The position numbers and the translations under genes were made by a program. The notes below the pieces were generated by a model. The model was not told the DNA's origin, did not search any database, and saw nothing but the letters and a program-made list of their open reading frames with translations. From Actinomycetota bacterium (GTDB lineage Bacteria > Actinomycetota > CALGFH01): a stretch of DNA of 41,237 nucleotides. Shown piece after piece: positions 21,777 to 39,323 of this stretch. Positions within the stretch are counted from its first letter, which is position 1, and each line of letters opens with the position of its first letter. The stretch covers positions 1 to 41,237 of the forward strand of contig DASUPQ010000468.1 of assembly GCA_036280995.1 (NCBI GenBank), read 5' to 3'.

Positions 21777-22943
21777 TCAGGTGACCCCGGAGGGTCGGAG
21801 CGTCTCGGGGGTTCGCAGGATCAGGGCCAGCGCGACCGCCGTGGGCACCGCGGCCAGAACGAACGCCCAGCCGAACCCGACCACCGGGACCGCCCAGCCC
21901 GCCAGGAGCGGCCCCACGGTGAACCCGAGGTCGCCGCAGAACCGGAACACGCCCACGGCGGTCCCTGACACCTGGGCCGGCGCGACGTCGGACAGCATCG
22001 CGCCCGGCGGCACTCCGGCCGCGCCCGACATCACGCCGAGCACCGCCAGCACCACACCGAGCAGCAGTGGGGTCGGGGCCAGACCGATCGCGGCGGTGGC
22101 CACGGCCAGCCCGGCGAGCGCCGGCACCAGCACGGGCTTGCGGCCGCGCTGGTCGGCGACGCTGCCGGCCGGGTAGAGGACCACGAGCTCGGCCGTCAGC
22201 GCGATCGCGAACAGCACCCCGATCCCCACCGTCGACAGCCCGAGCACGTCACTGGCGAACAGTGGGACGAGGGTGTCGAACACCACCGCCACCATCCACA
22301 GGTAGGCGAAGTTCGTCACCACCACCGGGACCAGCCCGGGAGTCCGCAGCAGCCGGGCCAGGCCGCCGCCCTCGGCGGAGGTCGGCCGGGGGATGCCCTC
22401 GGCCGGCGCCGGGCCGGGCCGGGCGGCGGAGTCGAGGACCAGCCACAGGACGGCGGCCATGGCCACCACCACAGCGTTGACGAGCAACGGCCCGGCCAGG
22501 CCGAGGCGGTGGGCGACCACGCCACTGGCGGCCCCGCCGGCCACGAAGCCGGTGTTGAACGCGCCGTAGAAGATCCCCAGGGTGCGGGCCATCTGCTGGG
22601 TCGGGACGACCCGTAGCACGCGGGTGTACAAGGCGGCCAGGGCGATGGCCGAGCCGACCCCGGCGGCCGCCCAGGCGGCCACCGCCATCGCGAAGCTGGA
22701 GGCGATCCCGGTCAGCGCGGAGCCGGCCGCGATCACCGCCAGCCCACCCGCCGCCGTGGCCCGCTCGCCAAGGCGGTCGACGATCCGACCCGCGGCCAGG
22801 TCGAAGACCAGACGGGCCAGGCCGTAGGCCGACACCAGCAGGCCCACGGCGCCGTAGCCGACGCCGAAGGACCGGGCGAACAACGGCAGGATCGGCAGGA
22901 CCAGCCCCGCCCCCGCCATCACGATGAAGACGACCAGGACCAC
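21777..22943 (-). CDS. MFS transporter
   Basis: 388 aa with about 12 hydrophobic segments. MFS loop motifs are present (GRIVDRLGER and DQRGRKP). Confidence 0.8.
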   Translation of the reverse strand: MVLVVFIVMAGAGLVLPILPLFARSFGVGYGAVGLLVSAYGLARLVFDLAAGRIVDRLGERATAAGGLAVIAAGSALTGIASSFAMAVAAWAAAGVGSAIALAALYTRVLRVVPTQQMARTLGIFYGAFNTGFVAGGAASGVVAHRLGLAGPLLVNAVVVAMAAVLWLVLDSAARPGPAPAEGIPRPTSAEGGGLARLLRTPGLVPVVVTNFAYLWMVAVVFDTLVPLFASDVLGLSTVGIGVLFAIALTAELVVLYPAGSVADQRGRKPVLVPALAGLAVATAAIGLAPTPLLLGVVLAVLGVMSGAAGVPPGAMLSDVAPAQVSGTAVGVFRFCGDLGFTVGPLLAGWAVPVVGFGWAFVLAAVPTAVALALILRTPETLRPSGVT

Positions 22944-23297: not shown

Positions 23298-26200
23298 GTG
23301 GCCGAGACCCGAGCTCCCGACCCGCTCGGCACCCCGCTGGCCAAGGCCCCCGGGGTGTCGGCGCCGCTGGCCAGGACCCTGGAGGAGTCGTTCGGCTACC
23401 GCACCGTCCGTGACCTGCTGGAGCACTACCCGCGGCGCTACCTGACCAGGGGCGAGCTCACCGACCTGGCCCACGCCAAGAAGGGCGCCGAGGTCACCCT
23501 CGTCGGCACCGTCCGCAACCTGGCCAAGAAGCAGCCCCGGCGCAACCTCCGCATCCTCGAGGTCCGGGTGGTCGACGACAGCGGCGCCTGGGTCTGCACC
23601 TGGTTCAACCAGCCCTGGCACGCCCAGAAGCTGACCGTGGGCACGGTCGCCGCCTTCTCGGGCAAGCTCGCCTGGAAGGCCGGCCGCCTCGGCATGGCCA
23701 ACCCCGGCTACGAGGTCCTGCGCGAGGGCGACGACCCCGAGGGGTTCGCCAACGAGGTCATCCCCGTCTACCCGGCCAGCAAGGAGGTCTCCTCGGGCCG
23801 GATCCGCCGGGCCGTCGGCGCCCTCCTCGACCGCTACGGCGACGTCCCCGACTTCGTGCCCGAGCCGCTGCGCCGGGCCCACGGCCTGCCCGGCCGGGCC
23901 GGCGCCCTTGAGGCCATCCACCGCCCCGGCGACCGCAAGGAGGCGACCCGGGCCCGCGACCGCCTGGTCTACGACGAGCTGTTCGTCCTCCAGGTCGGCC
24001 TGGCCCTGCGCCGCCGCGCCCAGGAGGCCGGCCAGCACGGCCAGCCCCTCCAGACCGACGGCGACCTCACCAAGCGCCTCCTGGCCAGCCTCCCCTACCA
24101 GCTCACCGGCGCCCAGTCCCGGGTCATGGCCGAGATCGGCGCCGACCTGTCCCGTCCCAAGCCGATGCACCGTCTCCTCCAGGGGGAGGTCGGCAGCGGC
24201 AAGGCCCAACCCATCCACTCGCTGGTGCTCACGCCGAGCGGATTCAAGCGGATGGGTGCCATCGAGGTCGGTGACGAGGTTGTCAACCCGACGGGGGAGA
24301 TCACCGTCGTGACCGGCGTGTTCCCCCAAGGCCTCCGTGACACCTGGCGGGTGGTGTTCTCGGACGGCACCAGCGCCGAGTGCGACGACGAGCATCTGTG
24401 GCTGGTCAAGACGTCCTGCGGTTGGCACCGGGGCGACACGCCGCATGTCAGGACGACCCGCGAGCTGCGACGCGATCTCACCAAGAGGAACGGCTCCTCC
24501 AAGTGGTACATCCCGGTGGCGGCCGCCGCCGAGCTGGAGTGCGGCGAGGAGCGTCCGATGGACCCCTACCTCCTCGGGCTGCTCCTCGGCGACGGCTCCT
24601 TCCGGGCGAATCTGATGATCTCGACGGCTGACCAGGAGATCGTGGAGGCCGTTGCCGAGGCGCTACCGCCGGACTGCTACCTCAAGCGCGAGCCGTCCAG
24701 GCCGTACGACTACCTCATCCGACGTCGGTTCCGGACGAACCAGTACGACCCACATCCGGTGGCTGCCGCCCTGAAGCGGCTCGGCCTGCGTGGCGCGCGC
24801 TCTCGCGACAAGCACGTCCCTCGGGCCTATCTGATCGCTCCGAGCAAGGTGCGCCACGCGGTGCTGCAGGGGCTGCTCGACACCGACGGCACGCTCAACG
24901 CAGAGCAGGGCAGCAACGTCACCTTCCTCTCGGCGTCCCGGCAGCTCGCTGCCGACGTTCAGTGGCTGGTCGCGTCCCTCGGGGGCGTCGCTCGGCTCCG
25001 TCCGGTCAAGAAGGTAGGCGAGGTCCACTTCCTCGTCAGTGTCCGGCTCCCGAACGAGTACCCCCCGTTCCGGCTGCGCCGGAAGGCCGAGCTGCTGCGG
25101 CCGCCGACGAAGTACCATCGGTTCCGGCGGGCGATCCGCAGGATCGAGCACGTCGGCCTCAGGCCCGTCCAGTGCATCTCGGTCGCGCATCCGAACCAGC
25201 TCTACGTCACCGATCATTTCGCGGTCACCCATAACACGGTGGTGTCCCTCTGGGCCCTGCTGTGCGCGGTGCAGTCGGGGATGCAGGGAGCGATCATGGC
25301 CCCGACCGAGGTGCTGGCCGACCAGCACGGCATCAACCTCCGGGGGCTGCTGGAGCCGCTGGGGGAGGGCGGGGGGCTGTTCGGGGGGCCGCGGGTCGAG
25401 GTGCTGACGGCGGCCACCACCGGGGCGGCCCGGCAGCGGATCCTGGACGGGGTGGCCGCCGGCGAGGTCGACCTGCTGGTCGGCACCCACGCGCTGCTGT
25501 CGGAGGGGGTGGAGTTCCGGCGGCTGGGCGCGGTCGTGGTCGACGAGCAGCACCGCTTCGGCGTCCACCAGCGGGTGCGGCTGCGCGAGAAGGGCGACAG
25601 CCCGCACGTGCTGATCATGACCGCGACCCCGATCCCGCGGACGCTGGCCCTGACCCTGTACGGCGACCTGGACGTGTCCACCCTTGACGAGCTGCCGCCG
25701 GGCCGGACCCCGATCGCCACCCACGTGGTCGCCGACGCCACCCTGCGGGAGCGGGCCTATACGCGGGTCCGGGAGGAGGTGGCCGCCGGCCACCAGGCGT
25801 ACGTGGTCTGCGCCCTCAAGGACGAGTCGGACAAGGTCGAGGTCCGCTCGGCCAAGGCCGAGGCCGAGCGGCTCCGGGCCGAGGTCTTCCCTGATCTACA
25901 ACTCGGGCTGGTCTACGGCGACATGCCGGCCCGCGAGAAGGAGGCGACCATGGACCGCTTCCGGGCCGGCGAGGTCGACGTGCTCGTCTCCACCACCGTG
26001 ATCGAGGTCGGCGTCGACGTGCCCAACGCCACCGTGATGCTGATCGAGGACGCCGACCGCTTCGGCCTGTCCCAGCTCCACCAGCTCCGGGGGCGGGTCG
26101 GGCGGGGCCGGGCCCCCGGGCTGTGCATCCTGTTCGCCGACCCCCTGACCGACGAGGGCCGGGCCCGCATGGACGCCATCGCCCGCACCAACGACGGCTT

Positions 26201-26450
26201 CGAGCTGGCCAACGAGGACCTGCGCATCCGCGGCGAGGGCACCGTGTTCGACGCCCGCCAGTCGGGCCTCTCCGACCTCAAGCTGGCCCGCCTGGTCGAG
26301 GACTTCGACTGGGTCCGGCGGGCCCGGGCCGACGCCTTCGCGCTGGTCGAGGCCGACCCGGAGCTGGCCGGCCCCGACCACCGGCGGCTGCGCCAGGAGG
26401 TGCTGGCCCGCCTCGGCGACGGCCGCGCCGAGTGGCTGGCCCGCGGGTAG
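23298..26450 (+). CDS. recG: ATP-dependent DNA helicase RecG, interrupted in frame by an intein
   Basis: 1050 aa in total. The N-terminal wedge region is followed by LLQGEVGSGK, a 344-aa insert, then TVVSLWALLCAVQSGMQGAIMAPTEVLADQH, DEQHRFG (Walker B), TATPIPRTL and HQLRGRVGRG. Removing the insert restores GSGKT and gives a typical ~706-aa RecG. Confidence 0.95.
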   Translation: MAETRAPDPLGTPLAKAPGVSAPLARTLEESFGYRTVRDLLEHYPRRYLTRGELTDLAHAKKGAEVTLVGTVRNLAKKQPRRNLRILEVRVVDDSGAWVCTWFNQPWHAQKLTVGTVAAFSGKLAWKAGRLGMANPGYEVLREGDDPEGFANEVIPVYPASKEVSSGRIRRAVGALLDRYGDVPDFVPEPLRRAHGLPGRAGALEAIHRPGDRKEATRARDRLVYDELFVLQVGLALRRRAQEAGQHGQPLQTDGDLTKRLLASLPYQLTGAQSRVMAEIGADLSRPKPMHRLLQGEVGSGKAQPIHSLVLTPSGFKRMGAIEVGDEVVNPTGEITVVTGVFPQGLRDTWRVVFSDGTSAECDDEHLWLVKTSCGWHRGDTPHVRTTRELRRDLTKRNGSSKWYIPVAAAAELECGEERPMDPYLLGLLLGDGSFRANLMISTADQEIVEAVAEALPPDCYLKREPSRPYDYLIRRRFRTNQYDPHPVAAALKRLGLRGARSRDKHVPRAYLIAPSKVRHAVLQGLLDTDGTLNAEQGSNVTFLSASRQLAADVQWLVASLGGVARLRPVKKVGEVHFLVSVRLPNEYPPFRLRRKAELLRPPTKYHRFRRAIRRIEHVGLRPVQCISVAHPNQLYVTDHFAVTHNTVVSLWALLCAVQSGMQGAIMAPTEVLADQHGINLRGLLEPLGEGGGLFGGPRVEVLTAATTGAARQRILDGVAAGEVDLLVGTHALLSEGVEFRRLGAVVVDEQHRFGVHQRVRLREKGDSPHVLIMTATPIPRTLALTLYGDLDVSTLDELPPGRTPIATHVVADATLRERAYTRVREEVAAGHQAYVVCALKDESDKVEVRSAKAEAERLRAEVFPDLQLGLVYGDMPAREKEATMDRFRAGEVDVLVSTTVIEVGVDVPNATVMLIEDADRFGLSQLHQLRGRVGRGRAPGLCILFADPLTDEGRARMDAIARTNDGFELANEDLRIRGEGTVFDARQSGLSDLKLARLVEDFDWVRRARADAFALVEADPELAGPDHRRLRQEVLARLGDGRAEWLARG
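24204..25235 (+). mobile_element. Intein (344 aa) with a LAGLIDADG homing-endonuclease domain; Ala1 start and class-3-like WCT signature
   Basis: Block A is AQPIHSLVLTPSGFKRMGAIEVGDEVV. Block B is DGTSAECDDEHLW, with His at 24393-24395 and Trp at 24399-24401. The LAGLIDADG motifs are PYLLGLLLGDGSF and VLQGLLDTDGTL. Block F is VQCISV, with Cys at 25173-25175. Block G is FAVTHN followed by T, with the Thr before His-Asn at 25227-25229. The +1 residue is the Walker A Thr. Confidence 0.9.
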
Positions 26451-26482
26451 CACAAACCCCCCATACGCACTACGCTCCCGCC

Positions 26483-27313
26483 ATGTCGAGCGACGACCGT
26501 GGCTGGTCGGACGAGGACCAGCTCGTCCAGTACCTGGCCGAGTTCGGCTTCAACCGCAACGAGGCCCGGATCTACCTGGCCGCCCTCGGCCGTCCGCCGC
26601 TGCGGGTCGCCGAGCTGGCCGAGCTGGGCGACGTCAACCGGCCCAAGGCCTACGACGCCCTGCGCCAGCTGGTCGACAAGGGGCTGTTCTCGGAGGTCAG
26701 CGGGTCGGGGCACGGCCAGGTGGCCCGCTTCCAGGCCGCCGACCCGATGCTGGTCGTGCAGCGCCTGCGCCACCAGAGCGCGCTCGAGCAGGCCGACCGG
26801 GTCCAGGACACCGCGCTGCTGGTCGCCGACCTGTTCGCCCGCTACTACGAGGCCCCCCAGGGCGACGACCCGTTCGAGTACGTGGAGCTGATCCGCAACT
26901 CCGACGCCGCCTGGGCCCGCCGCGACGCCATCACCGCCGGCGCCGAGAAAGAGGTCGTCCAGGCCCGCCGGATGACCCCGCCGGGGACCGGGCCGCGGGC
27001 CGGCGACGAGGTCGGCGTCCGCGAGGGGGTCAGCTACCGGGCCCTGTACGAGACCGGGTTCCTCGACTTCCCGCAGTTCGTGGCCCGGCTGGCCGAGCGC
27101 GAGCAGCGCGGCGAGCAGATCCGCTTCGTCGACAAGGTGCCGGTCGGCCTGACCGCCGTCGACCGCCGCAAGTGCCTGCTCAGCCTCAACCCGACCGGGC
27201 TGGTCAGCGGGCAGGGGAGCTGGGTCGTGCTGGAGCAGCCGGCCCTGGCCCACCTGCTCACCGACGCCTTCGACCTGCTGTGGGACTCGGCCACGCCAGG
27301 TCCCCTCCAGTAG
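26483..27313 (+). CDS. TrmB-like transcriptional regulator (wHTH plus C-terminal effector-like domain), paralog 1
   Basis: 276 aa. The N-terminal region LVQYLAEFGFNRNEARIYLAALGRPPLRVAELAELGDVNRPKAYDALRQLVDKGLF is the TrmB HTH signature. Confidence 0.7.
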   Translation: MSSDDRGWSDEDQLVQYLAEFGFNRNEARIYLAALGRPPLRVAELAELGDVNRPKAYDALRQLVDKGLFSEVSGSGHGQVARFQAADPMLVVQRLRHQSALEQADRVQDTALLVADLFARYYEAPQGDDPFEYVELIRNSDAAWARRDAITAGAEKEVVQARRMTPPGTGPRAGDEVGVREGVSYRALYETGFLDFPQFVARLAEREQRGEQIRFVDKVPVGLTAVDRRKCLLSLNPTGLVSGQGSWVVLEQPALAHLLTDAFDLLWDSATPGPLQ

Positions 27314-27326
27314 CTGGGCAACCTTC

Positions 27327-27355
27327 TTGACTTCGCCCTGAACCGTGCCTACTGT
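27327..27355 (+). promoter_or_regulatory. Near-consensus promoter in the gap between the two TrmB-like genes
   Basis: TTGACT (27327-27332), a 17-nt spacer, then TACTGT (27350-27355). The -10 overlaps the TTG at 27355 that opens the track ORF. Confidence 0.45.
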
Positions 27356-28320
27356 TGCGGCTCGCTCCTGTTGTCCCCTCTGGGAAGGACAGATCGCTGA
27401 CCCAGTCCGATGACTCGGATCTGATCGACCGGCTCGTCCGACATGGCCTCGGCCAGGGCGAGGCCCGCTGCTACGTCGGCATGCTGGCCCAGCGGGCGTT
27501 CAAGGTCAGCGAGGTCGCCGCCGAGGCCGGCCTGCCAAGGTCGCGGGCGTACGAGCTGATCCGTTCGCTGGTCCGCTTCGGGCTCTGCACCGAGGTGGCC
27601 GGAGGCAGCGGGGTCGCCCGCTTCCGGGCCGTCCCGCCCAACGAGGCCATCGGCCGGCTGGAGGCGTCCAAGGCCGAGCAGGCCCGCCGGCGCGACCGGG
27701 CCCTCACCGGCCTGGCCGAGGCGCTCACCCTCCGCACCGGCCCGACACCCGGGGCCGGCGAGGAGCCGCTGGAGATGCTGCGCCGCCGCGAGCAGCTCCT
27801 CGGCGTCATGGCCACGGAGGTCTGCCGGGCCCGCCAGGAGGTGCTGACGATCGTCAACACCTCCTGGGAGCCGGCCGACTGCCCGGGGATGCGCGACCGC
27901 CTGGCCGCCGGGGTCCGCTTCCGCACCATCTTCGACCGCGACTCCCTGGAGCACGACCCGCACCGGGAGTGGGTGGCCGCCTTCGCCGACGACGACGGGT
28001 TCGAGGTCCGGGTCGTCGACCGCGTCGAGACCCTGTACCTGCTCGTCGACCGGTACGTCGTGCTCCTCAACCTGACCGTCCCGGGCTCCGGGTCGCCCGG
28101 CAGCCATGCCGAGAGCCTGCTGATGCGCCACGCCGGCCTCGGCGAGATCCTCCACGACGCCTTCGAGCGCACCTGGGTGCAGGGCGCCCCTTTTGAGCAG
28201 GCCCTCGAGGCGGACGGCGCACCCGCCCTCGTGGGCGCAACGGCCAGCGCGCGCGGCCACGCCCCGATCCGGTGGCGCGGTTCGCACGCCAGCAACGGCC
28301 GCTCGGCCTCGTCTGGCTGA
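27355..28320 (+). CDS. TrmB-like transcriptional regulator, paralog 2 (true start possibly CTG 27397)
   Basis: The sequence LIDRLVRHGLGQGEARCYVGMLAQRAFKVSEVAAEAGLPRSRAYELIRSLVRFGL has the same architecture as paralog 1. GGGAAGGA lies 7 nt upstream of the in-frame CTG at 27397. No in-frame ATG or GTG precedes the HTH. Confidence 0.65.
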   Translation: MRLAPVVPSGKDRSLTQSDDSDLIDRLVRHGLGQGEARCYVGMLAQRAFKVSEVAAEAGLPRSRAYELIRSLVRFGLCTEVAGGSGVARFRAVPPNEAIGRLEASKAEQARRRDRALTGLAEALTLRTGPTPGAGEEPLEMLRRREQLLGVMATEVCRARQEVLTIVNTSWEPADCPGMRDRLAAGVRFRTIFDRDSLEHDPHREWVAAFADDDGFEVRVVDRVETLYLLVDRYVVLLNLTVPGSGSPGSHAESLLMRHAGLGEILHDAFERTWVQGAPFEQALEADGAPALVGATASARGHAPIRWRGSHASNGRSASSG

Positions 28321-28965: not shown

Positions 28966-29037
28966 GCTTGAGCCCCCCGGGCCCCCAGTTGGGTACCCTT
29001 GACCTGAGCCCGACCCCCAGCCAGGAGACCCCGACCC

Positions 29038-29523
<486 letters not shown>

Positions 29524-30356: not shown

Positions 30357-31155
30357 GCGACAGCCGATCGAGAAGGCCCTCGGCGTCCGCTTCGGCGGCG
30401 AGGAGCTCTACGTCTGGGCCTTCACCCACCGCTCCTTCGCCTACGAGAACGGCGGCCTGCCCACCAACGAGCGGCTCGAGTTCCTCGGCGACGCCGTCCT
30501 CGGCCTGGTCGTCACCGACATCATCTACCGCGCCTTCCCCGAGCTGCCCGAGGGCCAGCTGGCCAAGCTGCGGGCGGCCACGGTGAACATGAACGTGCTG
30601 GCCGAGGTGGCCCGCGAGCTCGGCGTCGGCGACGCCGTCCGTCTGGGCCGGGGCGAGGAGCTCTCGGGCGGGCGGGACAAGTCCTCCATCCTGGCCGACA
30701 CCCTCGAGGCCGTGCTCGGGGCCATCTACCTCGACAAGGGCCTGTCCCGGGCGGCCGCCCTGGTGCGGCGGCTGTTCGAGCACCGGGTGATGGAGGCGGC
30801 CGGGCGCGGGGCCGCCCTCGACTACAAGACCTCCCTGCAGGAGCTGGCCGCGTCCAGCCTCGGCGGGATGCCCTCCTACGCCATCGAGGAGGAGGGCCCC
30901 GACCACGCCAAGCGGTTCACGGCCACCGTCTCGGTCGCCGGCACGGCCTACGGCAGCGGCAAGGGCCGCTCCAAGAAGGAGGCCGAGCAGCAGGCGGCCC
31001 GTGAGGCGTTCGAGTCCCTGGCCGCCGACCGCATGGTCAGCGGCACCGGCGACGCCGGGACCGATCCACCGAGGCACCCCTCCGGGGTTCCCCGGATCCC
31101 TCCGGTCGACGTGGTCCCCGCCGAATCTCCTGCGCCCCCGCCAGCGGGCGAGTAG
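30343..31155 (+). CDS. rnc: Ribonuclease III
   Basis: The signature is [15 protein letters not shown], followed by [17 protein letters not shown] and the dsRBD region ([10 protein letters not shown]...[19 protein letters not shown]). An approximately 45-aa Pro-rich tail follows. The start is assigned to TTG 30343 and is uncertain. Confidence 0.9.
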
Positions 31156-32003
31156 TGCCCGAGCTCCCCGAGCTGGACGTCCTGGCCGAGAACCTGGCGG
31201 CCCGGCTGGCCAAGGCCAGGGTGGCCGCGGTCCGGGTCGTCTCGGTGGCCGCCCTCAAGACCTTCGACCCCCCGATCGACGCCCTGGTCGGCCTGGCCGT
31301 CACCGGGGCCGGCCGCCGGGCCAAGTACGTCTGGCTCGAGCTGGGCGAGCTGCGCCTGGTCATGCACCTGTCGCTCGGCGGCCGCCTGGTCCTGGGGCCC
31401 AAGCCGGCCCCGCGCAAGACCGCCGTGCTCACCGTCGACCTCGACGACGGCCGGGTCCTGTCCATGACCGAGGGCGGCACCCAGCGCCGGGCCGCCGTCT
31501 GGCTGGTCGACGACGTCGAGAAGGTCCCGCCCCTGGCCGGCCTCGGCCCCGAGCCGCTCGACCCCGGCTTCACCACCGAGCGCCTGGCCGCCATCCTGGC
31601 CGAGGGCGGCCACACCCTCAAGGGCATGCTCACCGACCAGCGGGCCATGGCCGGGGTCGGCAACGCCTGGAGCGACGACGTGCTCCACCGGGCCCGCATG
31701 TCGCCCTTCGCCCGCCCCGAGCGCCTCGACCCGTCCGAGGTCGAGCGCCTCCACACCGCCCTGGTCGGCGTCCTCACCGAGGCCCGCGCCACCCTGGCCT
31801 CCCAGGTCGGCGACGAGGTCGTGATCCCCAAGGCCTCCGAGCGCCTGTTCGCCGTCCACGGCCGCGCCGGCGCCGCCTGCTACGTCTGCGGCGACACCAT
31901 CCGCTCGGTCTGGATGGGCGAACGCGAGACCTCCTACTGCCCGACCTGCCAGACGGGCGGCCGGGTCCTGGCCGACCGCCGCCGGTCCCGCTTCCTCCGC
32001 TAG
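31155..32003 (+). CDS. Fpg/Nei family DNA glycosylase, paralog 1
   Basis: GTG overlaps the rnc stop (taGTG). The N-terminus is MPELPE. RRAKYVWL retains the Lys. The H2TH is LTDQRAMAGVGNAWSDDVLHRARM, and the zinc finger is CYVCG...YCPTCQ. Confidence 0.8.
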   Translation: MPELPELDVLAENLAARLAKARVAAVRVVSVAALKTFDPPIDALVGLAVTGAGRRAKYVWLELGELRLVMHLSLGGRLVLGPKPAPRKTAVLTVDLDDGRVLSMTEGGTQRRAAVWLVDDVEKVPPLAGLGPEPLDPGFTTERLAAILAEGGHTLKGMLTDQRAMAGVGNAWSDDVLHRARMSPFARPERLDPSEVERLHTALVGVLTEARATLASQVGDEVVIPKASERLFAVHGRAGAACYVCGDTIRSVWMGERETSYCPTCQTGGRVLADRRRSRFLR

Positions 32004-32058
32004 AATGCCAGCGTCCGGCCCGGGGACGCTCGGGCGAGGCGGCCCGCCGGAGGAGCCT

Positions 32059-32904
32059 GTGCCCGAGTTGCCGGAGGTCGAGACCCTCCGCCAGGACCTC
32101 GACAAGGAGGTCGGCGGCCGGAAGGTCAAGGCGGTCGAGGTCAGGGCGGCCAAGGTGGTGCGCCGCCACCGCAACCGCCGGGAGTTCGCCGACCGGCTCG
32201 TTGGCCGCAAGCTCGGCGCCGCCGCCCGCATCGGGGACCTGCTCCTGCTGGGCCTGGACGGCGGCCCGGAGACGGCCGCGCTGGTGATCGACCTCGGCCC
32301 CGGCGGGCGGCTGCTCAAGCAGCGCAGCGCCGCCCCGGTCGAGCGCCAGACCGACGCCGTGCTCAGCTTCTCGGTCGGCGGCGACCTGCGCGTCCTCGGC
32401 CTCGGGGAGGACGGCGAGCTGTTCCTGGCCGGCAACGACGACCTGGAGGAGCTGGCCGACCGGTGGCGCGGCGCCATCGACCCGCTGGCCGACGCCCTGG
32501 CCTGGCAGGCCCTCGGCGCCCGGCTCGGGGCCAGGCAGGAGCGGCTGCGCACCCTGCTCACCGACCCGGCGTTCGTGACCGGCATCGGCCCGGTCTACGC
32601 CGACGAGATCCTCTGGGCCGGCGGGCTGCGCTGGGACCGGGACTCCTCCAGCCTGACCGCCCAGGAGGTGCGCCGGCTCCACCGGGCGATCCAGGAGGTG
32701 GTCCAGGAGGCCGTGCGCCTGCGCGGGGTCTCGGTGGGGGAGACCCCCTGGCTCGACCTCCACGGCGGCAAGGGCGAGTTCGAGCCCCAGCTCAGCGTCT
32801 ACCAGCGGGAGGGCCAGCCGTGCCGCCGCTGCCGCACCCCCCTGGTCCACGAACGCATCGAAGGCGGGCAGACCACGTACTATTGCCCCAAATGCCAGAG
32901 CTGA
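32059..32904 (+). CDS. mutM: Formamidopyrimidine-DNA glycosylase-like protein, paralog 2
   Basis: GTG at 32059 follows GGAGGAG. The N-terminus is PELPEVETLR. The H2TH is LLTDPAFVTGIGPVYADEILW, and the zinc finger is CRRCRTPL...YYCPKCQ. The position that aligns with the RRxKYLLL Lys reads RIGDLLLL. Confidence 0.85.
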   Translation: MPELPEVETLRQDLDKEVGGRKVKAVEVRAAKVVRRHRNRREFADRLVGRKLGAAARIGDLLLLGLDGGPETAALVIDLGPGGRLLKQRSAAPVERQTDAVLSFSVGGDLRVLGLGEDGELFLAGNDDLEELADRWRGAIDPLADALAWQALGARLGARQERLRTLLTDPAFVTGIGPVYADEILWAGGLRWDRDSSSLTAQEVRRLHRAIQEVVQEAVRLRGVSVGETPWLDLHGGKGEFEPQLSVYQREGQPCRRCRTPLVHERIEGGQTTYYCPKCQS

Positions 32905-34480: not shown

Positions 34481-34528
34481 AACGTTCGCCCCATCGGCGC
34501 CGACATCCCCGGGATCGTCCGATCCCCG

Positions 34529-34537
34529 TGCTAGCAT
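34529..34537 (+). promoter_or_regulatory. Extended -10 element (TGcTAGCAT) 11 nt upstream of the smc ATG
   Basis: It matches the TGnTAnnnT pattern. No SD lies before ATG 34549, which is consistent with a very short or absent leader. Confidence 0.3.
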
Positions 34538-34548
34538 CAGCCGGCCTG

Positions 34549-37500
34549 ATGTTCCTCAAGTCGCTGACCCTGCGCGGGTTCAAGTCGTTCGCCGAGAAGA
34601 CCACCCTGGACTTCGAGCCGGGGATCACGGTCATCGTCGGCCCCAACGGTTCCGGCAAGTCCAACGTGGTCGACGCCGTCGCCTGGGTGCTGGGCGAGCA
34701 GGGCCCCAAGTCGCTGCGCGGCGGCAAGATGGAGGACGTCATCTTCGCCGGCACGGGCAGCCGCGGCGCCCTCGGCCGGGCCGAGGTCGCCCTCACCATC
34801 GACAACTCGGCCGGGCTGCTGCCCATCGAGTACAGCGAGGTGACCGTCACCCGGCTGCTGTACCGCTCCGGCGAGAGCGAGTACGCCATCAACGGCACCA
34901 CCTGCCGGCTGCTCGACATCCAGGAGCTGCTGTCCGACACCGGCGTCGGCCGCGAGCTGCACACCGTGCTCGGGCAGAACCGCCTCGAGGACGTGCTCCA
35001 GGGCCGGCCCGAGGACCGCCGGGCGGCCATCGAGGAGGCGGCCGGGGTGTACAAGCACCGCCGCCGCAAGGAGAAGGCGCTGCGCAAGCTGGCCGGCATG
35101 GAGCAGCACCTGGTCAGGCTGTCCGACCTCGTCGGGGAGCTGCGCCGCCAGCTCAAGCCGTTGCAGCAGCAGGCCGAGACGGCGGCCAGGGCGGCCGAGG
35201 TCGCCGCCGAGCTGCGCGAGGTCCGCCTCACCCTGCGGGCCAGGGAGCTGGCCGGGGTCCGCCAGCGCTCGGCGTCGCTGGACGCCGAGGAGGCCGCCTT
35301 CGCCGCCCGGCTGGCCGAGCTGGAGCAGCGCCACGACGCCGAGGAGGCGCGCGAGCGCGGCTTCCAGGCCGAGCTGGCCGAGCTGGAGCCCCTGGCCGGC
35401 CGGGCCACCGACGCCGTGCACCGCCTGGCCACCGTGCGCGAGCGCCTCCGGGGCACGGTCGCCCTGGCCGAGGCCCGTGCCCGCCACCTGGCCGAGTCGC
35501 TGGCCACCGAGCACGAGGGCCGCTCCGTGGCCGACCTGGAACGGGAGGCGGCCGAGGTCGCCGCGGAGCTCGGCCGGGTCGAGGACGAGCTGGCCGCGAC
35601 CACCGCCACCGCGACCGAGGCCGCGGCCGTCCGCAACCGCGCCCGGGCCGCCCTGGCCGCCTTCGACCAGGCCGCCGCCCGGGCCGAGCGGGACCGGGCC
35701 ACCGCCCACCGGCGCGAGGTCCGCCTGGCCAGCGAGGTCGCCGGGCTGGAGCGGACGATCGAGCAGATGGAGGCCGAGACGGCCCGGCTGCGCGAGCAGG
35801 CGGGCGCGGTCGAGCGCCGCCGGGCCGAGACGGCCGCCCTCCTGGACCGGTTCCGGGCCGAGCGGGCCGATCTGGAGGCCCAGCAGGCCGGCCGGGACGC
35901 CGACCGGCGGGCGGCCGAGGAGCAGCGCGACCAGCGGGCCGCCGCCGCCCGGTCCCTGGCCGCCGAAGAGCGGCGGGTCGAGGCGGAACGGGCCGCCGCC
36001 CGCGCCCGACGCGAGGCGTTCGAGGCCACCGCCCGGGCGGCCGGCGGCGACGCCCTCGCCTTCCTGGAGGGCGCCGGCCGCGACGGCGTCCTCGGCCCCC
36101 TCGCCCCTGCCCTCTCGGTCGACCCCGGCTACGAGGCCGCGGTCGCCGCCGCCCTGGGCCCCGACGCCGACGCCATCGTGGTCGCCGGCCCCACCGTCGC
36201 CACCGGCGGCGCCCGCCTCCTCCGCGACGCCGGCAGCGGCCGCGCCATCCTCCTCCATCCCTCGGCGAACGGGTCGGCCCCGGACCCCGGAACCAACGGC
36301 TCGCCGTCGCTGCTCGACCGGGTGGCCACCGCCGGGGTGGCCGGAGAGGTGGCCAGGGCGCTGCTGGACGGGGTGCTGGTCGCCGACGACCTGGAGCAGG
36401 CCAGGGAGCTGCTGGAACGGCATCCCGGGGGACGGGTCGTGACCCGGGCCGGGGAGCTGCTGGCGGCGGGGCGGGTCGAGGGCGGGGTGGTGCCCGAGGC
36501 GAACGGGCTGGCCGCGCGGCGGGCCGCCGACGAGGCCGCCAAGGCCGAGGCGGCGACGGCCGCGACCCTGGAGCGGGTCGGGGCCGAGCTGCGCGCGGCC
36601 CAGCAGGAGCTGGAGGCGGCCGAGGGGCGGGCCGCCGACGCGGCCCGGGCCCTGCGCGACGCCCAGGCGGCCGTGCGGCGCCTCGACGACCGGGCCACCC
36701 TCGCCGGCAAGGAGCTGCGCGGCCTGGAACGGGAGGCGGCCGCGGCGGCCGAGCGCCTGCACGAGCTCGACGCCGGCCGCGAACGGGCCGCCGCCCGCCT
36801 GGCCACCGCCCAGACCGACCTGGCCATCGCCCCCCGGCAGGGGGTGCTCGCCGGGACCGGGGCCGAACGCGACGCCGAGCTGCTCGCCGGCGGGCGGCCG
36901 CCCCTGGTCGAGGCCCTCGACCAGGCCGAGCAGGCCGCCACCGCCGCCCGGGTGGCCGGCGCCGCCGTTGGCGAGCGGCGCCGGCTCCTCGACCAGCGCC
37001 TGGCCGAGCTCCGCGCCCTGGCCGCCGCCGAGGTCGAGGCGGCCGAGCAGCGGGCCCGGGCCCGCGGGGCCCGCCTCGACGGCGCCCGCCGGGCCGGGGT
37101 GGCCGCCACCGCCGGGGCCACCGCCCTGGCCCGGCTGGAGCGGTCCCTGGCCGCCGCCGCCGCCGAGCGCGACCGCCTGGCCGGCACCCTCCAGGCGGCC
37201 CGGGAAGGCCTGGCCGCGGCCAGCGCCACCCGCCGCGAGGCCACCGCCGCCCTCGACGAGCACCACGCCGTCACCCGGGCCTCCGACGAGGCCAGGGTCG
37301 AGGCCCGCCTGCGCGCCGAGGAGCTGGGCAAGCGCATCGTCGAGGAGTTCGCCATCGACCCCGACGAGGCCATGGCCGAGTACCTGCCCGGCGAGGCCCG
37401 CCTGGCCGAGCTGCCCGAGCCCGACCCGCGCCGCCAGCCCTCGACCGAGCTGCGCCGGGTCGCCACCGCCCTCGACCGCCGCCTCACCCTGCTGGGCCGG

Positions 37501-38133
37501 GTCAACCCCCTGGCCCTGGAGGAGTTCAAGGCCCTGGAGGAGCGCTACAGCTTCCTCTCCAGCCAGCTCCAGGACCTCAAGGAGAGCCGCCGCGACCTGC
37601 TCAAGGTGGTCAGGGCGGTCGACGAGCGGGTCCGGGAGGTGTTCGGCTCGGCCTTCGAGGACGTGGCCCGCGAATTCGAGCGCACCTTCGGGCTGCTGTT
37701 CCCCGGCGGCGAGGGCCGCCTCGTCCTCACCGACCCCGACGACCTCCTGGCCAGCGGGATCGAGGTCGAGGCCCGGCCCCCCGGCAAGAAGGTCCGCCGC
37801 CTGTCGCTGCTGTCGGGCGGCGAGCGCAGCCTGGTCGCCCTGGCCTTCTACTTCGCCATCTTCCGGGCCCGCCCCAGCCCCTTCTACGTCCTCGACGAGG
37901 TCGAGGCCGCCCTCGACGACGTCAACCTGCACCGCTTCCTCGACCTGCTCGACGACGCCCGCGAGCACGCCCAGCTGCTGGTCGTCAGCCACCAGCGCCG
38001 GACCATGGAGGCGGCCGACGCCCTCTACGGCGTTTCCATGCAGGCCGAGGGTGTCAGCAAGGTCGTGAGCCGGCGGCTCCGCTCTGGCACCCTCGACGGG
38101 AACGACGAGGCCGTCGCCGTCGCAACGAGGTGA
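34549..38133 (+). CDS. smc: Chromosome partition protein SMC
   Basis: 1194 aa. The N-terminal head reads MFLKSLTLRGFKSFAEKTTLDFEPGITVIVGPNGSGKSNVVDA. Long Ala/Glu/Arg coiled coils follow. The hinge reads GVLGPLAPALSVDPGYEAAVAAALG. The signature motif is LSGGERSLVALAFYFAIF, and Walker B is FYVLDEVEAALD. Confidence 0.95.
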   Translation: MFLKSLTLRGFKSFAEKTTLDFEPGITVIVGPNGSGKSNVVDAVAWVLGEQGPKSLRGGKMEDVIFAGTGSRGALGRAEVALTIDNSAGLLPIEYSEVTVTRLLYRSGESEYAINGTTCRLLDIQELLSDTGVGRELHTVLGQNRLEDVLQGRPEDRRAAIEEAAGVYKHRRRKEKALRKLAGMEQHLVRLSDLVGELRRQLKPLQQQAETAARAAEVAAELREVRLTLRARELAGVRQRSASLDAEEAAFAARLAELEQRHDAEEARERGFQAELAELEPLAGRATDAVHRLATVRERLRGTVALAEARARHLAESLATEHEGRSVADLEREAAEVAAELGRVEDELAATTATATEAAAVRNRARAALAAFDQAAARAERDRATAHRREVRLASEVAGLERTIEQMEAETARLREQAGAVERRRAETAALLDRFRAERADLEAQQAGRDADRRAAEEQRDQRAAAARSLAAEERRVEAERAAARARREAFEATARAAGGDALAFLEGAGRDGVLGPLAPALSVDPGYEAAVAAALGPDADAIVVAGPTVATGGARLLRDAGSGRAILLHPSANGSAPDPGTNGSPSLLDRVATAGVAGEVARALLDGVLVADDLEQARELLERHPGGRVVTRAGELLAAGRVEGGVVPEANGLAARRAADEAAKAEAATAATLERVGAELRAAQQELEAAEGRAADAARALRDAQAAVRRLDDRATLAGKELRGLEREAAAAAERLHELDAGRERAAARLATAQTDLAIAPRQGVLAGTGAERDAELLAGGRPPLVEALDQAEQAATAARVAGAAVGERRRLLDQRLAELRALAAAEVEAAEQRARARGARLDGARRAGVAATAGATALARLERSLAAAAAERDRLAGTLQAAREGLAAASATRREATAALDEHHAVTRASDEARVEARLRAEELGKRIVEEFAIDPDEAMAEYLPGEARLAELPEPDPRRQPSTELRRVATALDRRLTLLGRVNPLALEEFKALEERYSFLSSQLQDLKESRRDLLKVVRAVDERVREVFGSAFEDVAREFERTFGLLFPGGEGRLVLTDPDDLLASGIEVEARPPGKKVRRLSLLSGGERSLVALAFYFAIFRARPSPFYVLDEVEAALDDVNLHRFLDLLDDAREHAQLLVVSHQRRTMEAADALYGVSMQAEGVSKVVSRRLRSGTLDGNDEAVAVATR

Positions 38134-38141
38134 GGTAGGGA

Positions 38142-39323
38142 GTGGAAGGGCTGCAGATCCTGCTCGTGGTCGCCGCCACCCTGGTGATCGTGAGCCTGCT
38201 GGCCGTGGTGCCGCTGGTCGCCGGGCGCCGCCGGCGCCAGGACGCCGACGAGGTCCGCCAGGTCGACCTGGACCGTGAGCCGGGCGTCGGCGACGACGCC
38301 GGGCAGCCGCCAAGGCCGGGCCGGGAGGTCGCCGACGTCGACCTCCCCCCCGACGACCGCGGCGTGGCCACCGCGGCCCCGCCGGCCGAGGAGGTCATCG
38401 CCCCCCGGCGGCGCTTCCGCGAGCGCCTCGGCCGCTCCCGGGCCGCCCTCTCCCGCGGCATGGCCGGGCTGCTGGCCAGGGGCGCCGACGACGACGAGGC
38501 CTGGGAGGAGCTGGAGGAGGCGCTGCTCGCGGCCGACGTGGGCGTGGCCACCTCCACCGAGCTGGTCGAGCGGCTGCGGACCCGGGCCCGGGCCGAGCGG
38601 GCCAGCGGCCCCGAGCTGCGCGAGCTGCTCCGGGCCGAGCTCCGCGACGCCGTCGGGTCCGGCGACCGGTCGCTCGCCCTCGACCTGCTCGAGGACCACC
38701 AGCGCCCCGGGATCGTGCTGGTCGTCGGCGTCAACGGCACCGGCAAGACGACCACCGTCGGCAAGCTCGCCCTGGCCCTGGCCGAGGAGGGCAAGCAGCC
38801 GGTGCTGGCCGCCGCCGACACCTTCCGGGCCGCCGCCACCGAGCAGCTGGTCATCTGGGGCGACCGCGTCGGCGCCCCGGTCGTCCGCCACCAGCAGGGC
38901 GCCGACCCGGCCGCGGTCGCCTTCGACGGCCTCGCCTCGGCCCGGGCCCGGGGCGCCGACGTCCTCCTGGTCGACACCGCCGGCCGCCTCCACACCAAGA
39001 CCAACCTCATGGAGGAGCTGCGCAAGCTCCGCCGGGTCCTGGAGCGCGAGGGCGGCCAGATCCGCGAGGTCCTCCTGGTCCTCGACGCCACCACCGGCCA
39101 GAACGGCCTCGCCCAGGCCCGCCAGTTCACCGACGCCGTCGGCGTCACCGGGGTCGTCCTGACCAAGCTCGACGGCACCGCCAAGGGCGGCATCGTCATC
39201 GCCGTCCAGCGCGACCTCGGCATCCCGGTCAAGCTCGTCGGTCTCGGCGAAGGCCCCCACGACCTCGCCCCCTTCGACCCCGACGCCTTCGTGGACGCGC
39301 TGCTGTCCGACGACGGCGCCTAG
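38142..39323 (+). CDS. ftsY: Signal recognition particle receptor FtsY
   Basis: 393 aa. An N-terminal TM/acidic region is followed by the NG domain with GVNGTGKTTTVGKLA, DTAGRL and TKLDGTAKGG. Confidence 0.95.
   Translation: MEGLQILLVVAATLVIVSLLAVVPLVAGRRRRQDADEVRQVDLDREPGVGDDAGQPPRPGREVADVDLPPDDRGVATAAPPAEEVIAPRRRFRERLGRSRAALSRGMAGLLARGADDDEAWEELEEALLAADVGVATSTELVERLRTRARAERASGPELRELLRAELRDAVGSGDRSLALDLLEDHQRPGIVLVVGVNGTGKTTTVGKLALALAEEGKQPVLAAADTFRAAATEQLVIWGDRVGAPVVRHQQGADPAAVAFDGLASARARGADVLLVDTAGRLHTKTNLMEELRKLRRVLEREGGQIREVLLVLDATTGQNGLAQARQFTDAVGVTGVVLTKLDGTAKGGIVIAVQRDLGIPVKLVGLGEGPHDLAPFDPDAFVDALLSDDGA

Follow-up and report, generated by a model that had tools for sequence, protein, structure and literature searches.

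What splits the Walker A motif of the RecG helicase in an uncultured actinomycete of very high GC content? The window, that is, the whole stretch of 41,237 nucleotides analyzed here (contig DASUPQ010000468.1 of the assembly GCA_036280995.1), encodes RecG in an open reading frame (ORF) that carries 344 additional codons within this motif. The insert is very likely a class 3 intein with a LAGLIDADG homing endonuclease, which occupies the chromosomal recG gene between the Lys and the Thr of Walker A. The features of the locus are listed in Table 1.

A recG gene with a split P-loop

The ORF is RecG, read as one unbroken frame with a split P-loop. For the whole protein, the scores of three NCBIfam RecG equivalog models exceed their curated cut-offs; the best one, NF008168, gives 805.6 bits against a cut-off of 718, and TIGR00643 gives 677.1 bits against 659.4. 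These hidden Markov model (HMM) matches fall in two stretches and skip the insert. The Pfam domains of the whole protein are RecG_wedge, DEAD, Helicase_C, and RecG_dom3_C, with LAGLIDADG_3 within the insert.

The translation of the ORF reads ...HRLLQGEVGSGK / AQPIHSLVLTPSG...DHFAVTHN / TVVSLWALL..., where the slashes mark the borders of the insert between GSGK and T. The insert is 1032 nucleotides long, in frame, and contains no stop codon. A first-pass annotation of the window, made from the letters alone, had placed a 344-residue insert between GEVGSGK and TVV, and its coordinates, frame, and translation agree with the present analysis. It had further claimed that deletion of the insert restores GSGKT and a helicase of normal length. 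The in silico deletion indeed yields HRLLQGEVGSGKTVVSLW and a RecG protein of 706 amino acids, and the spliced recG sequence around the junction reads ...GGCAGCGGCAAG/ACGGTGGTG....

Intein-free RecG loci were fetched from species-representative genomes for comparison. All 62 have an uninterrupted GSGKT or GAGKT at the insertion point, with the consensus HRLLQG[DE]VG[SA]GKT. Because these 62 genes are contiguous there, removal of the insert restores a normal Walker A motif. A class 1 intein beginning at the Ser of GSGK was considered and rejected, as its splicing would remove the P-loop. The boundary at Ala1 was accepted because any other boundary would destroy GSGKT.

Splicing motifs, class assignment, and predicted mechanism

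The class 3 prototype is known as the MP-Be DnaB intein, from phage Bethlehem. Its sequence was found in Bethlehem gp11 (AY500153, L002:7260-9971), which is annotated as hypothetical in GenBank and corresponds to the terminase TerL1-c (PMC5050341). The published prototype residues S62, H65, W67, C320, T339, H340, N341, and T+1 are all present at those positions of the gp11 intein. Two other Bethlehem proteins were rejected as the prototype host: gp62 (DnaB-like) contains no intein, and gp52 is a phosphoesterase with a separate class 1 intein. The phage loci covered here are L002:7260-9971 and L001:4578-6296.

The splicing blocks A, B, F, and G, with the motifs EHLW (H64, W66), VQCISV (C324), and VTHN (T342, H343, N344), were all found where the first-pass annotation had placed them. 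The residues D61, H64, W66, C324, Y334, T342, H343, and N344 align with S62, H65, W67, C320, F330, T339, H340, and N341 of the Bethlehem prototype. The first 14 residues align without gaps (AQPIHSLVLTPSGF in the window and PLALNTEVPTPSGW in Bethlehem), and therefore Ala1 of the window intein corresponds to Pro1 of the prototype. MAFFT paired the Bethlehem Pro1 with Pro3 of the window intein; this pairing was rejected, since the first 14 residues align clearly better without gaps, and such an alignment agrees with the extein junction. The best matches in the HMMER search against PDB sequences were gp41-1 and the class 3 DnaB inteins of M. smegmatis (DnaBi1, 6bs8) and M. chimaera (6rix, 6riy). 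The Trp and the Cys of block F are paired in these matches, with W66 and C324 placed on the Trp and Cys of DnaBi1.

The diagnostic positions are conserved in the wider family. In an alignment of 35 homologous sequences H64, C324, T342, and H343 are invariant, and conservation reaches at least 90% at W66, N344, and the +1 Thr. Among 62 trimmed inteins of the family, Cys at F4, Thr at G5, and His at G6 are found in all 62 and Trp at B12 in 56. Residue 1 is Ala in 47 of the 62, and the Gln-Pro that follows is nearly invariant.

Class 3 inteins lack a Cys, Ser, or Thr nucleophile at residue 1 and carry the WCT triplet of Trp at B12, Cys at F4, and Thr at G5. The insert begins with Ala and has W66, C324, and T342 at these positions; it is followed at +1 by the Thr of Walker A, and His64 does not vary in the family. 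Judged by its sequence, the insert carries every sequence-defined feature of class 3 given in PMC2807308. The class assignment of the first-pass annotation, drawn from Ala1 and the three triplet residues, is thus borne out by the alignments to the Bethlehem prototype and to 6bs8, in which the B12, F4, and G5 assignments hold. The features of inteins in general are present as well: a predicted HINT fold, the C-terminal H343-N344, and a precise in-frame insert at a conserved site without counterpart in the 62 orthologs.

The AlphaFold2 model of the intein has a predicted local distance difference test score (pLDDT) of 94.3 and a predicted template modeling score (pTM) of 0.92. Foldseek with this model retrieved PI-SceI and TliVMA, which is the VMA intein of Thermococcus, with E-values of 1e-15 to 1e-17 and query TM-scores of 0.61 to 0.77. 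It also retrieved 6bs8, 6rix, and 6riy, all of them class 3 mini-inteins, with target TM-scores of 0.76 to 0.83 in full-length alignments. According to the model, the insert folds as an intein with an endonuclease domain set into it.

The splicing chemistry is an inference from what is established for class 3 inteins (Tori et al. 2010, PMC2807308). Cys324 is proposed as the first nucleophile because residue 1 is Ala. It would attack the peptide bond between Lys(-1) and Ala1, leading to a thioester-branched intermediate. The N-extein would then be transferred onto the side chain of the Thr at +1, which is the Thr of Walker A. Asn344 would cyclize with the help of His343 and release the intein, and an O-to-N shift would finally yield an intact GSGKT in an active helicase of 706 amino acids. 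Exact splicing should be a condition for the ATPase activity of RecG, as had been proposed from the letters alone, since Walker A supplies its Thr as the +1 nucleophile. DnaBi1 has the same arrangement, with the P-loop Ser at +1 (PMC6195587).

The splicing intein might also work as a redox switch, in which oxidative stress would trap Cys324, for example in a disulfide with a further cysteine of the intein such as the nearby Cys60, and RecG maturation would be delayed until reducing conditions return. M. smegmatis DnaBi1 offers a precedent, as it is reversibly blocked by H2O2 via a disulfide between Cys48 and Cys118 (F4) (PMC6195587). The window intein has four further cysteines (60, 72, 113, and 158), and Cys60 at B6 is shared by all RecG-hosted alleles (21 of 21) and by 45 of the 62 family members. 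However, Cys60 is not equivalent to Cys48 of DnaBi1, which is located outside the splicing blocks, and selfish persistence at a conserved site explains the location of the intein without any benefit to the host. Such a switch is therefore considered unlikely. It is quite unlikely that in this lineage the redox state of the intein gates RecG maturation and so delays fork-reversal and branch-migration activity in oxidative stress. A regulatory role of any kind, for example a redox-dependent pause in splicing, is speculative.

Endonuclease domain, other alleles, and proposed transfer history

The preferred reading, a splicing class 3 intein with a homing endonuclease, extends to the domain between blocks B and F. 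The two LAGLIDADG motifs read DPYLLGLLLGDGS and RHAVLQGLLDTDGTL. Each keeps its acidic residue in GDG and DTDG, respectively, just as described in the first-pass annotation. In the family profile D130, K203, and D228 align to D218, K301, and D326 of PI-SceI, and they are conserved in 55, 55, and 56 of the 62 family members, respectively. The ratio of nonsynonymous to synonymous substitution rates (omega) was computed against two contigs, from a metagenome or a metagenome-assembled genome (MAG), that are ~90% identical at the DNA level (L083 and L084). The comparison with L084 gives an omega of 0.12 for the intein as a whole and of 0.11 for its endonuclease domain, and the part of the intein covered by L083 gives 0.08. 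The exteins range from 0.07 to 0.26, with 0.23 to 0.26 for the N-extein and 0.07 for the C-extein. The low omega values indicate that the nuclease is under constraint, that is, under purifying selection at the codon level. Because both catalytic Asp residues and the Lys are kept and purifying selection is seen, the released intein is probably a homing endonuclease that cuts intein-free recG alleles in the P-loop.

The identical site (GSGK or GAGK, followed by AQP...THN and T) is occupied in 17 species-representative genomes from Streptomyces, Kitasatospora, and Spirillospora, and the RecG intein is also found in fragments from Actinomadura. Twelve of the 17 alleles are full length (338 to 341 amino acids). 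The other five are shortened through the endonuclease region, four to 249 to 272 amino acids and the fifth to 291. The GC content at third codon positions (GC3) of eleven full-length alleles is 0.74 to 0.88, compared with 0.92 to 0.99 in their own exteins; in the twelfth (L012) it is 0.91, compared with 0.98 to 0.99. In the three shortest alleles, from which the endonuclease is deleted (L016, L017, and L019; 249 to 259 amino acids), GC3 equals that of their own exteins. A homing cycle in which inteins invade, become fixed, and decay would be expected to leave such a pattern. The RecG alleles L003-L020 form a gradient from recent invasion to old, decayed copies. The proposed homing activity would explain the scattered spread of the alleles, their lower GC3, and the decayed copies without endonuclease in some Streptomyces.

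In the window, GC3 is 0.887 in the insert, compared with 0.980 and 0.983 in the flanking exteins and 0.94 to 0.99 in the 13 other predicted genes. In the insert 39 of 344 codons end in A or T, compared with 13 of 706 for the exteins (Fisher p = 2e-10). The excess of such codons noted by eye in the first-pass annotation is thus real by both measures, although one of the codons given there, aag, does not end in A or T. The window intein is 52 to 60% identical to the alleles of the Streptomyces group, whereas the N-exteins are 40 to 43% and the C-exteins 50 to 54% identical. The comparison of sequences favors transfer of the intein between distant RecG genes and is not proof of it. The earlier suggestion of horizontal acquisition gains support from the composition and from the intein being more similar than the exteins to the distant alleles; it is still an inference.

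If the intein were a decayed remnant that no longer splices, recG would effectively be a pseudogene or would yield a RecG whose P-loop stays split permanently. Damaged relatives are compatible with such decay, and the endonuclease has been lost in several Streptomyces alleles. The metagenome contig L084 (JGI 3300043348; aligned to window positions 23366..25785) carries a recG allele 90.7% identical to that of the window, with a 4-nucleotide deletion at window position 24346 and a 2-nucleotide deletion at 25248, and is called as three overlapping ORFs. This is either an assembly error or a recently broken recG, and its codon-level divergence still looks selected. Among RecG-hosted alleles on ENA contigs, P0006 ends with THK, not THN, and has lost the frame of the C-extein; it may be a decaying allele. 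Both P0006 and P0011 have an extra insertion of ~57 amino acids in the endonuclease domain (…AAYEAGAS.EMIAGEVGLSYTAVRHRLIRGG…), which looks like a helix-turn-helix (HTH) by eye. In the window itself, however, the ORF is intact over 1050 codons, all residues essential in the prototype are present (B10 His, B12 Trp, F4 Cys, F15 aromatic, G7 Asn, and +1 Thr), and both exteins and intein are under purifying selection (omega 0.07 to 0.26). A remnant is therefore very improbable here.

The close relatives P0001, P0002, P0003, P0005, P0007, and P0009 are fragments 70 to 91% identical, and all of them have the intein. More distant members of the family, 30 to 42% identical, are found in PhoH, SNF2 and other helicases, RecA, and phage helicase and terminase genes. 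That the segment is a lineage-specific RecG domain and no intein, as its presence in all close relatives found might suggest, is ruled out for practical purposes by the 62 RecG orthologs that read GSGKT without it, by the related elements in these unrelated proteins, and by a fold and motifs that are those of an intein. Intein relatives occur in 618 phage records, of which 292 are from mycobacteriophages, in keeping with phages as the proposed reservoir of class 3 inteins. In PhoH-like ATPases from metagenomes (P0012-P0042), inteins of the family (35 to 42% identical) are found at two sites, the Walker A motif GTGK/T and another conserved motif, MRGR/T.

Several observations weigh against a splicing class 3 intein with an active endonuclease. 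In the Pfam scan of the insert LAGLIDADG_3 and Hom_end were matched, and no Hint or intein-splicing model was found at E <= 1. The splicing domain is therefore called from PDB, NCBIfam, and family alignments together with the predicted fold. B7 is Asp and F13 is Gln, in place of Ser/Thr and His in the prototype; PMC2807308 reports that both positions were dispensable in the Bethlehem intein and that a Tyr substitution at F15 still spliced at >95%. The synonymous divergence (dS) amounts to 0.45 to 0.62 in the intein and is lower, 0.18, in the exteins. Caution is needed with this gap, as the exteins have an extreme codon bias that restricts their synonymous change; the gap could reflect that bias, not a separate history. 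The conservation of catalytic residues in a sequence is not proof of endonuclease activity. No dedicated experimental study of any RecG intein was found in the literature searched.

Genomic setting and comparison with known systems

The setting of recG is ordinary chromosomal. An AI-2E transporter, a major facilitator superfamily (MFS) transporter, and rpmB are located upstream; two TrmB-family regulators, coaD, yceD, two Fpg/Nei paralogs, smc, and ftsY are downstream. The MFS gene is missing from the otherwise syntenic MAG contig L083 (~90% identical), in which the AI-2E transporter and rpmB are adjacent; the difference is a gain or loss of a 1.2-kb gene. No second intein was found in the window with tblastn, and the window showed no tRNA and no Rfam match. 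The DNA nearest to the window is a MAG of an "Actinomycetota bacterium" with ~90% identity. The RecG exteins are <50% identical to those of any named genus among the fetched genomes.

Table 1. Positions of the recG gene, its intein, and neighboring genes in the window.
Feature	Position	Strand	Remarks
recG precursor ORF	23298..26450	+	1050 amino acids plus stop codon: N-extein, intein, C-extein; from ORF listing, NCBIfam RecG equivalogs, Pfam domains
N-extein	23298..24203	+	302 amino acids; wedge domain; C-terminal end is Walker A ...GEVGSGK; Lys is the -1 residue; GC3 0.98
Class-3-type intein	24204..25235	+	344 amino acids, Ala1 to Asn344
Intein block A (AQPIHSLVLTPSG)	24204..24242	+	Residue 1 is Ala, no nucleophile; ungapped match to Bethlehem PLALNTEVPTPSG
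Intein block B (GTSAECDDEHLWLV)	24366..24407	+	Cys60 (B6), Asp61 (B7), His64 (B10), Trp66 (B12); aligned to Bethlehem S62/H65/W67, 6bs8, gp41-1
LAGLIDADG homing-endonuclease domain	24519..25103	+	About residues 106 to 300; Pfam LAGLIDADG_3, E = 1e-9
LAGLIDADG motif 1 (D130)	24561..24599	+	LLLGDG
Endonuclease Lys203	24810..24812	+	Aligned to PI-SceI K301
LAGLIDADG motif 2 (D228)	24852..24896	+	LLDTDG
Intein block F (PVQCISVAHPNQLYVT)	25164..25211	+	Cys324 (F4, predicted branch nucleophile), Gln332 (F13), Tyr334 (F15); aligned to Bethlehem C320/H328/F330
Intein block G (HFAVTHN) plus +1 Thr	25215..25238	+	Thr342 (G5), His343 (G6), Asn344 (G7), then Walker A Thr
C-extein	25236..26447	+	404 amino acids; first residue is Walker A Thr; rest of helicase core and C-terminal domain
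MFS transporter (Pfam MFS_1)	21777..22943	-	Between AI-2E transporter and rpmB
Two tandem TrmB-family HTH regulator genes	26123..27313 and 27355..28320	+	Between recG and coaD
coaD	29008..29520		
Two adjacent Fpg/Nei-type DNA glycosylase paralogs	~31005..32000 and ~31825..32901	+	Each with Fapy_DNA_glyco, H2TH, zinc-finger; upstream of smc
smc	34528..38133		
ftsY	38142..39323		

The finding matters little beyond correct annotation: the gene should be annotated as an intein-containing recG with a mature product of 706 amino acids, not as a helicase of 1050 amino acids with an extra domain. For evolution, a known intein family gains a divergent allele that looks intact, from an uncultured and deep-branching lineage of actinobacteria. 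Together with the Streptomyces alleles it illustrates the homing cycle, with foreign-looking codons in full-length copies and extein-like GC3 in L016, L017, and L019. As a class 3 P-loop intein within a repair helicase, the RecG intein could also provide a second case for testing whether splicing depends on redox conditions.

The Bethlehem prototype shares with the window intein a residue 1 that is no nucleophile, His at B10, Trp at B12, Cys at F4, an aromatic residue at F15, Thr at G5, the terminal His-Asn, and the +1 Thr. It also has a LAGLIDADG endonuclease between blocks B and F, a similar length (341 amino acids, compared with 344), and an ATPase gene as its host. It differs in overall sequence (~26% identity, 94 identities in 359 columns), in having Pro1 instead of Ala1, Ser instead of Asp at B7, and His instead of Gln at F13, and in its host, a phage terminase instead of chromosomal RecG. 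The Bethlehem TerL intein both splices and cleaves DNA (PMC5050341), and it is therefore a precedent for a class 3 intein with an active LAGLIDADG nuclease.

DnaBi1 of M. smegmatis (6bs8) and DnaB-1 of M. chimaera (6rix, 6riy) likewise have the WCT triplet and begin with Ala. They occupy the equivalent P-loop site, with the P-loop Ser/Thr as the +1 nucleophile (PMC6195587), and they match the window intein in sequence with E = 4e-7 to 8e-6. In contrast to the window intein they are mini-inteins without endonuclease, and they reside in DnaB, the replicative helicase. No evident counterpart of Cys48, the redox partner in DnaBi1, is seen in the window intein.

PI-SceI, the yeast VMA1 intein (1vde, 1lws), has the same two-domain architecture and two LAGLIDADG helices with the catalytic Asp residues plus the Lys, and it matches the model with a query TM-score of 0.71 to 0.77. 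It is, however, a class 1 intein with Cys1 and with Asp at F4, contains an extra DNA-recognition region, and is 16 to 17% identical.

The RecG inteins of Streptomyces, Kitasatospora, Spirillospora, and Actinomadura (L003 to L020, P0004, and P0008) share the host gene, the insertion point, and the class 3 residues with the window intein, and every allele has Cys at B6 and Asp at B7. They are 52 to 60% identical to it (53 to 56% for P0004 and P0008), and several Streptomyces alleles are without endonuclease. The window comes from a distant actinobacterial lineage, with RecG exteins 40 to 54% identical to theirs. Whether a RecG allele of class 3 was already catalogued had been left open in the first-pass annotation. 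Tori et al. 2010 (PMC2807308) name RecG among the helicase hosts of inteins without an N-terminal nucleophile, most of them in P-loops. In the host-level counts of a 2015 survey (PMC4760082), RecG is in the top 15 bacterial intein hosts with 12 inteins, all from Actinobacteria. RecG inteins are thus known, and the identical site is occupied in the 17 genomes described above. The window intein is a divergent new member of this known, catalogued kind of RecG intein.

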